A DNA stretch of 64,000 bases from a virus (IMGVR_UViG_3300021399_000001:5905-69904), one strand, 5' to 3'. Positions 16,688-34,538 are shown, numbered from the stretch's first letter. Numbers and translations: made by a program. The notes: a model not told the origin generated them from the sequence alone.

Positions 16688-17005
16688 AAGAGGGCGCAAG
16701 CCCTCTTTTTTTTCGCCGTCTGTTAGTTGCGGCTAACCTCGGCTTCGCGCGCTGTTAAATTTTTGTTAAGTTTATGTTAACCTCGGCTTCGGCCGGCGCG
16801 CGAATTAGGCACGGCCAATTGAATGTTAAGAATGTTAATTAGATTATACGTGAGGTCTAATTTACACACATTTAACATACAACTTTACGCGCATTTAACA
16901 CAATTATGCTTTTTTCTTAACACACTTGTGCTATACTATATATAATGAGAGTATGTTAAGGATAAGTTAAAATTGTTAAGAGTATGTTAAGGGGAGGTTA
17001 AAATT

Positions 17006-17284
17006 ATGTTAAAATTGTGTAATTTTTCTGTTAAGTATGCAGGTTACAGGTATGTTAAGAAAGCGTTTAGATTGTATAACGCCACCGAAATCTGTCAATA
17101 TTGGTCAAAGAAAGACTATATTGTAGGCAGCTGGGAAGCTGGAGACGATATTATGCCAGCTGGGTATTATTATTGGAGCTGTCACACCACGCGGGCAGCT
17201 GCTGAAAAGAAAGCAGCTGCGTTAAAAGATGGTAAAGTATTCCATAGATCGCAAATAGTGTTTTGTCACGTTGACGAATTTTAA
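17006..17284 (+). CDS. Cassette hypothetical protein
   Basis: 92 aa, GGGGAGG RBS. Confidence 0.6.
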   Translation: MLKLCNFSVKYAGYRYVKKAFRLYNATEICQYWSKKDYIVGSWEAGDDIMPAGYYYWSCHTTRAAAEKKAAALKDGKVFHRSQIVFCHVDEF

Positions 17285-17357
17285 TCAATTCTTAACTTGA
17301 CAGTGATTAATAAATTTGGTATAATATAATCAGAAAGAAACGAAAGGGGTAATTCAA

Positions 17358-17612
17358 ATGAAGTTTTACATGGTAATGTGTCATCGTGGACACTGTGGGA
17401 CGGGCCATAGCACTGAAATCAAGTTCGCAATTATGGCGAACAATCTACTTGAAGCGTGCGACAAGGCGCGCAGGATGCCAAGCGTAAAACATACCCGCAT
17501 GGCGATATTCGGTAAAGAAATTACCGAACAGGAATATAACAGTTACAGACAAGTGAGCGCGTATGACAGATTTAACCAACAAAGTGCAAAACTTAACAGG
17601 AAACGGCGCTAA
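17358..17612 (+). CDS. Cassette hypothetical protein (CHRGHCG motif)
   Basis: 84 aa, own promoter, stop codon within the terminator loop. Confidence 0.75.
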   Translation: MKFYMVMCHRGHCGTGHSTEIKFAIMANNLLEACDKARRMPSVKHTRMAIFGKEITEQEYNSYRQVSAYDRFNQQSAKLNRKRR

Positions 17613-17696
17613 GGCACCGTTTCCTTTTATTATCGTTATGTTAATTATAATACACGTATATTTTATTTTTCCTAAAATTAATATTCCATTTTTGAA

Positions 17697-17867
17697 TTAA
17701 TGGAATAATGCGGGAATAAGAAAAAGTAAAATAAATCCCAAAAGCGCAATTACAAATTCAAACGTAAAAGAACAAATTATATTTACCGTTTTCTTAATAT
17801 CCTCAAAAGTCAACCGATAGAACCACATTTTAATTTTATAAGACCACGATTTACGAGTACGTTTCAT
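17697..17867 (-). CDS. Inverted cassette, small membrane protein
   Basis: ATG 17867 after GGAG; hydrophobic C-terminus; TTGCTT-17-TATAAT promoter on the minus strand. Confidence 0.6.
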   Translation of the reverse strand: MKRTRKSWSYKIKMWFYRLTFEDIKKTVNIICSFTFEFVIALLGFILLFLIPALFH

Positions 17868-18112
17868 TTTTGATTCACTCCTTGCCTTTTCTTTAATCCT
17901 ATTATAGCACAATCCCGAAACTAAAGCAAGTACAAAATTAAATTTATGTTATGACAAGATTATGACAGAAAATAATTTCAAAGTCAAATTTCATTTTAAT
18001 TCTATGTTAATTACATTCAACGTATATCCTAATTTACAATCCTTTAACTTGACATTTCATTATAGATTTGATATAATCATTACAGAACAGAAAAGAAAGG
18101 GGTTTTCCTAAA

Positions 18113-18253
18113 ATGAAGATTTACGTTATTGATTGCAATGGTTTCCAGGGTAGCGCGCGTTATTCCCGTTTTGACGAAGCACAGGCCGCGGCCGAATGGC
18201 GCACACATTGCACAGGAATGGAATGGAAAGTACGGGAGTTGATACTCCCGTAA
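18113..18253 (+). CDS. Cassette microprotein, 46 aa (MKIYVIDCNG...)
   Basis: Below the ORF-track cutoff; complete palindrome-promoter-RBS-terminator context. Confidence 0.7.
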   Translation: MKIYVIDCNGFQGSARYSRFDEAQAAAEWRTHCTGMEWKVRELILP

Positions 18254-18377
18254 TTTCATTTTAAGTTTATGTTAATTAGACATCACGTTGTCTATAATTT
18301 ACAATCCTTTAACTTGACATTTCATTTCTAACGTGATATAATCATTACAGAAACAAACGAAAGGGGAGTATCCTAAA

Positions 18378-31546: not shown

Positions 31547-31617
31547 CCCCTTCCTTTTTTTAATGCCATGTAAATTATATTGCACGTACAACCTAATTAA
31601 CAAAAAAATAAAATGGA

Positions 31618-31989
31618 CTATTCGTCCATTTTAACCCATTCGATTTCATCCTTATCCCAACGAAACCAACCCACCTCATTATTAAAATCCTCATTATTGA
31701 AACAATAACCAAATTCATAGCGCATGAAAGAATTTTCTTCATCGGTCAGATTTTCTTCACGATGAACAATAACACTCTCATTAAAAGCATTGTCAAAAAA
31801 ATCCATCCAATCATTAATATCAGGTGAATCTTTCGGCGGCAAAAAGATATTCATGTCCTTATCAAAGAAAGAAAACTTTTCACTCATACTTACAAGCATA
31901 TCATGAACACGCTTTTCATATGCTTCACACTCTTCACGATCAAAAAACTCGGTGTCATCATAAGCATAGTAACGAACTTCTTCGCGCAT
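31618..31989 (-). CDS. Inverted cassette hypothetical protein
   Basis: 123 aa; YDDTEFFDREECEAYE N-terminus; between palindromes 31570 and 32060. Confidence 0.7.
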   Translation of the reverse strand: MREEVRYYAYDDTEFFDREECEAYEKRVHDMLVSMSEKFSFFDKDMNIFLPPKDSPDINDWMDFFDNAFNESVIVHREENLTDEENSFMRYEFGYCFNNEDFNNEVGWFRWDKDEIEWVKMDE

Positions 31990-32113
31990 ATTGGTTGTCC
32001 CCTTTCTTTTTATGTATATAGTATATCATAGTTTTTATATAGTGTCAAGTTAAATCACTGTAAACTACAATGTACGTACACTCTAATTAACACAGGCTTA
32101 AAAAAAAGGAGGC

Positions 32114-32443
32114 TTACGCCTCCTCCTTCTTGGCCTTAGCCTTGGCAACCTTGGCCGCCTTTTCCGCGTCCTTGGCCGCCTTGTTATCCGCCTTAATGCG
32201 CTTCTCCTCCTCCCACGCGGCGGCAACCTCGTAGGGGTCAAACGCAGGAGAAACCTTGGTGGGCTTGTAAGCCTTGGACTTGATCGAAACCTCAGTCCAA
32301 ACCTCCTGACCGTCAACGGTCTGGAGGATGGCAAAAGAAGCATCCCCAAACTTGACAGCTTCGTTCTCCTGAAGGACAGGCATCAGAGCGGCAATGGTCA
32401 TCTGACGAGCGGTGGACTTGATCTCATTAGCGTTCATAGACAT
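32114..32443 (-). CDS. K/A/E-tailed paralog 4, inverted
   Basis: Tail KADNKAAKDAEKAAKVAKAKAKKEEA; hairpin leader on the minus strand. Confidence 0.8.
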   Translation of the reverse strand: MSMNANEIKSTARQMTIAALMPVLQENEAVKFGDASFAILQTVDGQEVWTEVSIKSKAYKPTKVSPAFDPYEVAAAWEEEKRIKADNKAAKDAEKAAKVAKAKAKKEEA

Positions 32444-32727
32444 ATCGTTTCCCTTTCTGGTTTTTGAGCCTTTTCCTTGGCTTCTGTAGATATTATAGCA
32501 GAGATTCAGCGGATTGTCAAGTTAAGATTCTGTGAATTTTCTTGCTTACCCGTCCTTACCTCTCTGCCCTTGGAACAATTATATTATACATCCAAATTCC
32601 AGAAAAGTCAAGTTAAACGTATGTTAATTACATTGCACGTTCCTTCTAATTTACAAACACTTAACTTGCATTGTGGGCTATTTTGTGCTATACTATATAC
32701 ATCAAATGAAAGAGAGGAACATTCACT

Positions 32728-33447
32728 ATGGTTGACAATCGCATTCATTATTATTTGGCTCTGGACACCGAAACCACAAACGGCCTTGAACAGCCTTTTG
32801 TCTATGACATCGGCGGCGCAATCGTAGACAAGCAAGGCCGCATTTATGAGCATTTCTCGTTTGTCATCCGTGACGTTTTCGTGCATGAGCGCGAACTGAT
32901 GCAGACCGCCTACTATGCCGACAAGATTCCCGAGTATGCCGCCGACATCCGCGAGGGCAAGCGCGAAATGGTTAATTTCATGTTTGCGCGTCGTTTCATT
33001 CTCAATCTGATGGAGAAATACAATGTTAAGGATGTAGCCGCCTATAACGCGCATTTTGACAGGAACGCGCTAAACACTACTATCAGATGGTTAACAAAGT
33101 CTCGTGTTCGGTTTTTCTTTCCCTATGGTACAAATTTTGTTTGTATCTGGAATATGGCTTGTCAAACCATATGCCAGCGCATTACATACCGCCGGTTCTG
33201 TGAAGAACATCAGCTTTTTTCTGGAAACGGACACGGAACAGATAAAAAGGCGCGCAACATCAGCACCAGCGCGGAAAACGTTTATCGTTATCTGATTCTT
33301 AATCCCGAATATCAGGAAGAGCATAAAGGGCTTGACGATGTACTGATTGAGACTGAAATCATGAAACGATGCTTTTCCAGTCACATGGCAATGCCGCACG
33401 GAAAAGGAATAAGGCGGAATTGTTGGATGGATGTTAAGAGGACGTAA
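32728..33447 (+). CDS. Second DnaQ-like DEDDh exonuclease
   Basis: LALDTETT, VYDIGG, AYNAHFD and HKGLDDVLIE motifs. Confidence 0.8.
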   Translation: MVDNRIHYYLALDTETTNGLEQPFVYDIGGAIVDKQGRIYEHFSFVIRDVFVHERELMQTAYYADKIPEYAADIREGKREMVNFMFARRFILNLMEKYNVKDVAAYNAHFDRNALNTTIRWLTKSRVRFFFPYGTNFVCIWNMACQTICQRITYRRFCEEHQLFSGNGHGTDKKARNISTSAENVYRYLILNPEYQEEHKGLDDVLIETEIMKRCFSSHMAMPHGKGIRRNCWMDVKRT

Positions 33448-33526
33448 AGTCCTCTTTTTTTAAGGCAATGTTAAATAGAGTACACGTACTATCTAATTTA
33501 CACAACCTTAAAATAAATTCCTAACT

Positions 33527-33956
33527 CTATGAGTTAGGAAAATAATATCGGCAATCCCAAAGCAAATCATTATACAGACGCGGTGGCAACAAAAACTCCA
33601 TAACCTCAATGTCTCCGTCATACCATGTCCGCCGCCAGCCAAAAAACATATTCCAGACAAAATTTTTTGCCGCGCAAGCCGCTAAACAAAGCGCTTGCAT
33701 GTTCTTATCTGCTACTTGATAACGTTGCATCATTTTATTATTTCTCCTCATAAATTGTTAAGTCCTTTTCTGTACGTTGAAAATCAGAAAAGCCGTCTTT
33801 ATAAAAATCCTTGAAAACTCTTACGGTATAATTCACCCAATTATTTTTTTCAAAATTAACCTCATACTCCTCAAGAGGGTCAATATTAATTCCTACGATA
33901 TAGCCGACAAAAGTATAGACAGAACCAAAAGTCACCTTATCACCAATCTTAAACAT
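33527..33956 (-). CDS. Inverted two-gene cassette (33738-33956 and 33527-33733)
   Basis: Promoter 11 bp from palindrome 34028; terminator with TAG in its loop. Confidence 0.65.
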
Positions 33957-34538
33957 ATCAATTATTCTCCCTTCATTTGATAGTATAAGTATAGCAGAAA
34001 AATTCTAATATGTCAAGTTAAACCTATGTAAATTAGAGTACACGTACATTCTAATTTACAAAAAGTCAACAATACTTCACCACATTACCATGGCACCACA
34101 CTATCATACTACCATAGTAGCACTTTAACATAGTAGCATAGTAAAGTGGTAGCGCGCTAAACCTACCACTTGACTTCGTTATGAAATTATGCTATAATAT
34201 TTACAGAAGGGAAGGGAGAGAGAGAAATTCTAAAATCTGAAATTCAGGAAGCTGGGAGCTGGAACTCAAGGAGCTGGAAAGCTGGAAGTCAAGTAATAGA
34301 AAGCTGCAAAAGTTGACAAAATTTTACCCCACCTCGCAGGAAAATTTCTGTCAATAAGCTGGAGAAAAAAATATCTCCCATTCTAGTATAACACAAATTA
34401 TTTATTTTGTCAAATAAATAATTATTTTTTTATTTTAAATTAAATTTTATTTTATTTAAAAGAAGAATTTAAAATAATTTAAAATAATTTAAAATACTTT
34501 TATTTTGAAAATAAAATAAAAATAGAAGGAGGCCCAAT

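Follow-up and report, generated by a model that had tools for sequence, protein, structure and literature searches.

A helically phased 32-bp palindrome between the early-gene cassettes of a large gut phage: a probable shared operator and recombination seam

Architecture of the cassette array

The 64,000-nucleotide stretch analysed here (the window) comprises bases 5905-69904 of the virus record IMGVR_UViG_3300021399_000001 and contains an array of 32 early-gene cassettes delimited by 33 copies of a 32-bp palindrome, GTWAATTASA-N4-ACGT-N4-TSTAATTWAC (PAL in what follows). The array occupies positions 16834-34059, with a mean spacing of ~540 bp, and is flanked on the left by a sigma-factor-like gene (13181-14509, minus strand) and on the right by a DEAD/ResIII helicase-like gene (34539-35789, plus strand), both flanks being conserved in relatives. 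The complete record is a single contig of 184,104 bp with direct terminal repeats, is rated 100% complete and has a G+C content of 36%. Sequencing runs containing this genome come from goat, sheep and other gut metagenomes. Cultured phages yielded no nucleotide match to its DNA, and its portal protein is only ~30% identical to those of the nearest cultured phages, which infect Enterococcus, Lactococcus and Bacillus. Below, the phage under study is denoted G000 and its relatives G001-G005, and coordinates are window positions unless a genome or contig is named.

A scan of the whole 184-kb genome returned all 33 copies of PAL, at up to four mismatches, within 16834-34059, while the next-best site anywhere in the genome has 6-7 mismatches; the confinement of the repeat to this region, proposed in an initial annotation of the window, thus holds genome-wide. 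At three mismatches or fewer the window contains 31 matches versus 0.01 expected from dinucleotide-preserving shuffles. As annotated, the central ACGT is present in 32 of the 33 copies, the exception being CCGT at 20747, and the copies at 18553, 20158, 24395 and 34028 have perfectly inverted outer arms of 10 bp. The same annotation took the mixture of ACA and TCT arms as a mark of hybrid sites; this proved to be ordinary degeneracy at one position. Avoidance of restriction at ACGT was considered and rejected, as this tetranucleotide is not depleted outside the array (observed/expected ratio of 0.83). A literature search gave no paper describing the PAL motif, which had not been recognised in the initial annotation either.

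Self-contained units consisting of a promoter, a ribosome-binding site (RBS), a small open reading frame (ORF) and a terminator are found across the array, as initially described. Their order is regular: a G+C-rich hairpin with a T-run is followed by TTAA, 5-6 nt, the 32-bp PAL, 6 nt and TTAAC, and then by TTGACA, 17 nt, TATAAT or TATACT, a strong GGAGG-type RBS and the small ORF. TTAA lies 6 bp outside each arm of PAL, and since its occurrence at -9..-6 is mirrored at +39..+42, the repeat as a whole forms a symmetric element ~50 bp long, TTAA-N6-GTWAATTASA-N4-ACGT-N4-TSTAATTWAC-N6-TTAA. The TTAA positions are 83-98% conserved on both sides among 833 distinct copies from the larger set introduced below. 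A consensus scan of 18 kb identified 18 promoters matching at 12/12 positions and 24 at 11/12, and 45 terminator-like sites versus 15.7 expected; the hairpin and T-run end 6-10 bp ahead of most palindromes. Each side of PAL carries either a terminator or a promoter. About 14 consensus promoters without PAL are situated inside cassettes.

The commonest arrangement is a terminator on the left of PAL and a promoter 11 bp to its right. It is observed for PAL 4 (18271-18302, with a 12/12 promoter), PAL 7 (19275-19306), PAL 10 (20482-20513), PAL 11 (20747-20778, the copy with the CCGT centre and the left end of a cassette missing in G004), PAL 12 (21084-21115), PAL 15 (22099-22130), PAL 16 (22757-22788, three mismatches, preceded by a hairpin), PAL 17 (23076-23107, ahead of an NT5C-like gene at 23180-23626), PAL 18 (23650-23681), PAL 19 (24395-24426, with perfect arms), PAL 21 (25872-25903), PAL 22 (26566-26597, whose cassette is missing at the syntenic place in G004) and PAL 25 (29005-29036, where G004 has an extra cassette inserted). 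The promoter stands at 22 bp from PAL 13 (21399-21430), PAL 20 (25037-25068), PAL 23 (27009-27040, ahead of an exonuclease-like gene at 27103-28161) and PAL 24 (28196-28227), and at 23 bp from PAL 14 (21742-21773); PAL 13, 14, 23 and 24 have a terminator on the other side. Three copies depart from this pattern. PAL 1 (16834-16865), the first copy, has no mismatches, and the closest promoter on its right, TTAACA-18-TATAAT at 16917, is of an atypical form. PAL 8 (19721-19752) has a terminator on the left and no good adjacent promoter, the real one being located at 19837, and looks alike in three relatives. PAL 9 (20158-20189) has a terminator on the left and a promoter displaced to the right, and forms the left end of a cassette missing in G004.

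The remaining copies are associated with cassettes in the opposite orientation. The flipped cassettes of the initial annotation (18553-18904, 29565-30260, 30229-30632, 31570-32091, 32060-32654 and 33470-34059) were all confirmed, and one more, 17640-18037, was missing from its list. In total, seven cassettes are flipped, each with its own promoter and terminator. Five copies lie between convergent terminators, again as annotated: PAL 2 (17640-17671, four mismatches, without a promoter), PAL 5 (18553-18584, perfect arms), PAL 26 (29565-29596), PAL 29 (31570-31601) and PAL 32 (33470-33501). Three copies are shared by divergent promoters located 11 bp away on each side, namely, PAL 6 (18873-18904), PAL 28 (30601-30632, four mismatches) and PAL 31 (32623-32654, with a second exonuclease-like gene, 32728-33447, on its right). 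PAL 3 (18006-18037) also has a leftward promoter, that of the flipped cassette on its left, at another distance, and a 12/12 promoter 11 bp to its right. A leftward promoter at 11 bp is combined with a reversed terminator at PAL 27 (30229-30260), which separates two successive flipped cassettes, and at PAL 30 (32060-32091). The last copy, PAL 33 (34028-34059), has a leftward promoter at 11 bp and nothing recognisable on its right.

Two symmetric subtypes of PAL were distinguished, with G13/C20 in the helicase-proximal half of the array and A13/T20 in the other half (odds ratio of 8.6). The split runs between 23076-32654, where the inner sequence is TGYACGTRCA, and 16834-22130, where A13/T20 prevails, and it recurs in G004 and G002. 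The subtypes may represent two regulatory classes or result from local homogenisation.

A pattern scan of IMG/VR revealed 11 contigs with exact copies of PAL. The four larger relatives, G001-G004, contain one contiguous array each, of 30-42 copies, and G005 has a shorter series of at least 8 copies. A single array was found in every related phage contig examined, and in those relatives where both flanks are available it is situated between the same genes, with the sigma-like gene and the terminase on one side and the helicase on the other. A scan of metagenomes added about 80 loci. Together, virome and metagenome contigs provided 833 distinct PAL units, each with flanks of 90 bp. In a strict-pattern scan of 185,579 species genomes of bacteria and archaea, a collection that may lack the host, the ~50-bp site turned up in a single genome, where it sits on a phage-like fragment of 2.2 kb; this speaks against a common regulon of the host. 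This fragment (L042:537-568), binned in an Acetobacter metagenome-assembled genome, has PAL with a reversed promoter and terminator, and is probably misbinned DNA of a related phage.

Promoter geometry and conservation of the site

The distance between PAL and the -35 hexamer is nearly fixed. The 179 copies from six genomes have 155 adjacent promoters, of which 129 are spaced by 11 bp and another 21 by 22-23 bp. In the large set the respective numbers are 610 of 702 (87%) and 80 (11%), so that the two spacings together account for 98% of adjacent promoters. In the 22-bp class, the usual spacer ending with TTAAC stays next to PAL, and 11 bases, i.e., one helical turn, are added. If transcription starts 7 nt after the -10 box, the centre of PAL falls at -62.5 or, in the minority class, at -73.5. 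Such strict phasing to the -35 box, at 11 or 22 bp, points to a site of a regulatory protein.

The site itself is under purifying selection. In 34 orthologous pairs of PALs, the 24 motif positions differ in 3.4% of comparisons versus 23% at the eight N positions (Fisher p = 1e-20), an approximately seven-fold difference; the flanks differ at ~12% per site, and TTAA and TTAACTTGAC (the -35 positions) are nearly invariant. Near-invariant G/C positions within PAL are G1, S9, C16, G17, S24 and C32. The excess divergence of the N positions is not claimed here as a sign of gene conversion, since the flanks used for comparison are themselves constrained. None of the 169 distinct copies is a perfect dyad, and three of the four inner pairs are no more complementary than in column shuffles. 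As the inner pairs do not co-vary, the site is conserved as double-stranded sequence and not as a hairpin. A hairpin or cruciform was considered and rejected on the same grounds, i.e., the lack of arm co-variation and of perfect dyads.

Part of this geometry could arise without any dedicated protein, if the repeat were a bendable UP-like (upstream promoter) element that contacts the alpha subunits of RNA polymerase or wraps the enzyme. Indeed, the region is A+T-rich, has TTAA steps every ~11 bp, and spans -37 to -88 in phase with the -35 box. Early promoters of Bacillus phage SP82 are described as having curved DNA upstream, acting with rotational dependence. Nevertheless, we regard this explanation as improbable: generic bending or contacts with the C-terminal domains of alpha subunits would require neither the near-invariant G/C positions nor strict dyad symmetry. 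Moreover, promoter-less PALs are conserved, and strong promoters lacking PAL exist.

The interpretation that we favour, and consider probable, is that PAL is a shared protein-binding operator, a phased dyad controlling the early genes, which at the same time serves passively as a seam for recombination. A sequence-specific protein, acting as a dimer or tetramer and probably encoded by the phage, would read the ~50-bp two-fold symmetric double-stranded site upstream of strong promoters of the sigma-A type, from a centre about 62 or 73 bp ahead of the transcription start. The site would work in either orientation, and hence divergent promoters could share one copy. One factor might in this way control the whole set of early, or host-takeover, genes together. 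Because the promoters are already close to the consensus, shut-off or insulation is the most likely action, with activation also possible. A repeated intergenic site that is under purifying selection and has a fixed geometry relative to promoters has the attributes of a multi-copy operator. A partial precedent is provided by the p4 sites of phage phi29, which likewise are inverted repeats upstream of sigma-A promoters in a phage of Gram-positive bacteria; there, repression of strong early promoters and the switch of the expression programme are both due to a single early protein (Camacho and Salas, 2010; PMC3100819). On the other hand, the few sites of phi29 are grouped at one promoter cluster and depend on protein p6, whereas the array has about 33 sites over 17 kb; the site sequences are unrelated, and no p4-like protein was found in the phage studied here.

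A number of observations weigh against this proposal. Firstly, the searches did not identify a binding protein: Pfam and PHROGs searches with 30 ORFs of the array and its flanks produced no DNA-binding family, and profile searches of the genome detected no homologue of HU/TF1 or ParB. Helix-turn-helix (HTH) matches are weak and fall only outside the window, at genome positions 134145-134252 and 146285-146374. The weak matches to HTH_3 and Sigma70_r4, at G000:C1:145691-146380 and 134145-134252, could belong to regulators. Secondly, 177 of the 833 PALs (~21%) have no promoter on either side, and these match the motif equally well (1.43 mismatches versus 1.61 in the others). The copy at 18553, which has no promoter, retains intact arms in four relatives, where the flanks have diverged to ~70% identity. 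Conversely, about a third of strong promoters in the array have no PAL. Because promoter-less PALs are conserved and strong promoters can lack PAL, the site tracks unit boundaries no less closely than promoters, and this is left unexplained by a simple model of one operator per promoter. Thirdly, steric repressors seldom bind at positions upstream of -47. Finally, the fixed spacing could in part reflect the copying of one module instead of selection.

The promoter-less copies can be accommodated by the operator in one of two ways: either the bound protein acts region-wide, via cooperative binding, insulation or a roadblock, or copies left over from inversions stay useful. If the first of these is taken further, the main role of the bound protein becomes that of a roadblock or insulator, which stops read-through at unit boundaries and separates very active neighbours, with control of initiation being secondary. 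Such a stoperator-like roadblock is a serious rival, even if we think it unlikely. It would account for the fact that PAL always adjoins a terminator or sits between divergent promoters, for the presence and conservation of PAL between convergent terminators, and for the distribution of PAL-less promoters, all of which are unit-internal and not preceded by a terminator. The stoperators of Cluster A mycobacteriophages supply a documented precedent in which a repressor acts at many intergenic sites and stops elongation (PMC9283540). At the same time, a roadblock does not require exact phasing at 11 or 22 bp, and good intrinsic terminators already precede most PALs. Stoperators also are asymmetric and orientation-dependent (PMC9283540), whereas PAL is symmetric. 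The general likeness consists in dozens of intergenic copies of a repressor site with an effect beyond the promoter. Stoperators are 13-14 bp long, asymmetric, bound by a monomer and spread genome-wide in temperate phages with a known repressor (PMC9283540, PMC6550527), whereas the site considered here is a dyad of 32-50 bp that occurs in a single array, in a phage lacking an integrase.

Exchange of cassettes among related phages

The initial annotation interpreted the array as a cassette-shuffling system resembling an integron or a shufflon. The first half of this interpretation is supported by comparison of relatives, in which units have been inserted, deleted, moved and inverted at PAL, and the ends of rearrangements fall at the palindrome, as expected for a cassette boundary. 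The second half, a site-specific system of the integron or shufflon type, is not, given the scattered crossovers and the lack of a recombinase described below. Identical cassette order and orientation across relatives, or breakpoints scattered away from the PAL centre, were named at the outset as outcomes that would refute the proposal. Order and orientation do differ among relatives, and so does the gene content of the array, but the breakpoints are indeed scattered.

The closest relative, G004 (83-87% identity), is collinear with G000 apart from the presence or absence of whole cassettes. In this pair, 60% of homology-block ends are located within 40 bp of a PAL centre, a four-fold excess over the expected 15%; in more distant pairs the proportion is 23-38% versus ~15%. 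As about 40% of block ends are situated more than 110 bp from any PAL, the seam is preferred and not exclusive. In the cleanest three-way alignments, the terminator side goes with the upstream gene and the promoter side with the downstream gene, and the switch occurs inside PAL or at its edge.

Inversions were observed as well. In G001, G002 and G003, the cassette 31570-32091, whose left end is PAL 29, lies at a different position and points the other way; its protein is 37-44% identical, and the DNA match between relatives begins and ends precisely at the edges of PAL. G001 and G003 likewise carry the gene at 22444-22749 inverted and at a different place. In G005, the inverted segment measures 1.5 kb and includes several cassettes, with PAL at one of its ends. 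Gene family 28, considered as a third inversion, was dropped, as the protein match is too weak (35 residues). In the G003 contig, two PALs (7240-7271 and 7308-7339) are just 68 bp apart with no cassette between them, and G001 has one hybrid copy at this place.

To define junctions, we used pairs of PAL units with one flank at least 90% identical and the other flank not, and placed the switch point by a change-point likelihood with a position-specific background. The 383 distinct junctions mapped in this way have switch points scattered across ~60 bp; they extend from the terminator spacer as far as the -35 hexamer and are sparsest at the central ACGT. Visual inspection of 12 junctions agreed with this, placing the crossover in the left or right arm, in the centre or in the -35 box. 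The initial annotation saw no recombinase gene in the window, and this extends to the entire genome, which has no match to Phage_integrase (PF00589) or Resolvase (PF00239); a control search with PF00589 was positive in 14 of 14 genomes. The complete genome likewise yielded no RecA, RecT or ERF match, while control genomes were positive.

Hence, exchange most likely proceeds via ordinary homology-driven recombination, and not by an integron-like enzyme. No other repeat of the region is as well conserved as PAL, which in addition is symmetric; this makes it the preferred place for general homology-dependent recombination. Under the operator-and-seam interpretation, such recombination would delete, insert, move and invert whole promoter-gene-terminator units.

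A dedicated mechanism would instead make PAL the target of an unrecognised recombinase or site-specific nuclease, from the phage or its host, that actively excises, integrates and inverts cassettes, either through exchange at PAL or through cutting of PAL and repair from other copies or from co-infecting relatives. It has some attractive aspects. Every cassette is bounded by PAL, including at the promoter-less junctions of convergent terminators, where the copies persist across deep divergence; the variable order and orientation of cassettes have their ends at PAL; and the symmetry of the site permits deletion and inversion alike. An enzyme target would explain both why the site is found only at boundaries, promoter-less copies included, and why crossovers are scattered, as conversion endpoints after a nuclease-induced break would be scattered too. 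If an unrecognised nuclease or a recombinase of a new family were indeed at work, the early region would be an active, self-diversifying cassette exchanger. Still, we rate this as improbable in view of the broad junction distribution with its minimum at ACGT, the crossovers seen by eye, the distant block ends, and the genome devoid of matches to all five recombination families searched. In addition, an enzyme target would not need strict helical phasing to the -35 box, and the co-variation expected for the hairpins of attC sites is absent.

The comparison with integrons gives the same picture. Like attC and attI, PALs are imperfect palindromes between short gene cassettes. However, integrons require the tyrosine recombinase IntI, whereas PF00589 was not found in this phage genome; attC is kept as a folded single strand and PAL as sequence; and integron cassettes are promoter-less and co-oriented, with a fixed exchange point, whereas the array units have their own promoters and seven of them are flipped. 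Shufflons and DNA invertases (Rci, Hin/Gin) differ in the same manner, since neither of the respective families was matched and the junctions show no fixed point.

The analogue named in the initial annotation, the repeated promoter-stem-loop elements of T4-type phages, turned out to be the right one. These promoter-early stem-loop (PeSL) cassettes (Arbiol et al., 2010, PMC2839356; Comeau et al., 2014, PMC4122927) are built around a repeated composite of ~100 bp, with a terminator stem-loop, an A+T-rich upstream region and a consensus host promoter. They precede small ORFan genes in a hyperplastic region, and the repeats delimit the indels and replacements that set relatives apart. Exchange takes place through homologous recombination, which for PeSL was proposed to occur in the A+T-rich part. 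A further trait of PeSL is the excision of mini-circles, each with one chimeric element. The array corresponds to this description in its consensus promoters with A+T-rich upstream sequences, joined terminators, an ORFan-filled hyperplastic region and repeat-bounded indels. It differs in several respects. The phage belongs to an unrelated group with Gram-positive hosts. The A+T-rich part is a sharply defined dyad of ~50 bp with invariant G/C positions and a fixed helical phase, which also occurs without promoters, and cassettes are inverted as well. Finally, PeSL stem-loops may overlap the promoter, whereas in the array the terminator, the dyad and the promoter are separate.

Accompanying genes and biological context

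The genes of the array are mostly ORFans, i.e., most ORFs have no function assigned by Pfam or PHROG. The exceptions are the NT5C-like nucleotidase, two DEDD-exonuclease-like paralogues and a conserved family of 111-aa proteins. Both exonuclease-like genes (27103-28161 and 32728-33447; phrog_20187, with a weak match to phrog_192) are carried by cassettes. The 111-aa protein is encoded at 28649-28984, with paralogues at 31223-31546 and 32114-32443 (minus strand), and is 80-95% identical across more than 600 database clusters despite its location in a hypervariable array. Its predicted structure (predicted local distance difference test score, pLDDT, of 80) consists of a helix, three strands and a 45-residue helix rich in Lys, Ala and Glu. 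It produced no fold match, and no homologue was found in cultured phages; it is a possible candidate for a DNA-binding protein.

A second repeat occurs inside cassettes, after some of the promoters, in the form of a leader GGTGAAGGGAAACACC...AAACCAGAAAGG at approximately 23909, 25437, 27081, 28600, 30889 and 31164. Joints of Logan contigs have short sides (23-34 nt) and fall on the conserved leader and internal promoters, i.e., on repeats other than PAL. At 25238-25446, two successive 12/12 promoters without PAL are followed by no convincing ORF, making them candidate sources of small RNAs.

On the left flank, the sigma-factor-like protein belongs to phrog_5767, and ~60 residues at its C-terminus are similar to the zinc-binding region of endonuclease VII or Lar-like proteins. 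Immediately left of the array, positions 14000-16000 form an ORF-poor stretch with 52% G+C. The 198-aa ORF found there (15102-15698) belongs to no family, and its fold is predicted very poorly (pLDDT of 0.37); a structured RNA or leader is thus more probable here than a gene.

With respect to function, the host-takeover module of Bacillus phage SPO1 offers a further comparison. That module is located in the terminal redundancy and contains many strong sigma-A promoters with terminators; to our knowledge, no shared dyad operator has been described in it. In common with the array, it is a cluster of small early genes, thought to act in host takeover, of a large phage infecting Firmicutes (PMC6873191).

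Large uncultured phages of the gut and rumen carry long arrays of uncharacterised early genes, which probably serve host takeover or counter-defence. The presence of one conserved, phased site ahead of nearly all genes of such an array suggests a single master switch, through which the early regulon of an entire group of phages would be defined without the need for cultures. Exchange of accessory genes as ready-to-express units is explained by this site too. The PeSL idea, which concerns T4-type phages infecting Gram-negative bacteria, is thereby extended to an unrelated lineage with Gram-positive hosts, and what is new relative to PeSL is a sharply defined, helically phased dyad and the inversion of cassettes that a symmetric seam would enable.

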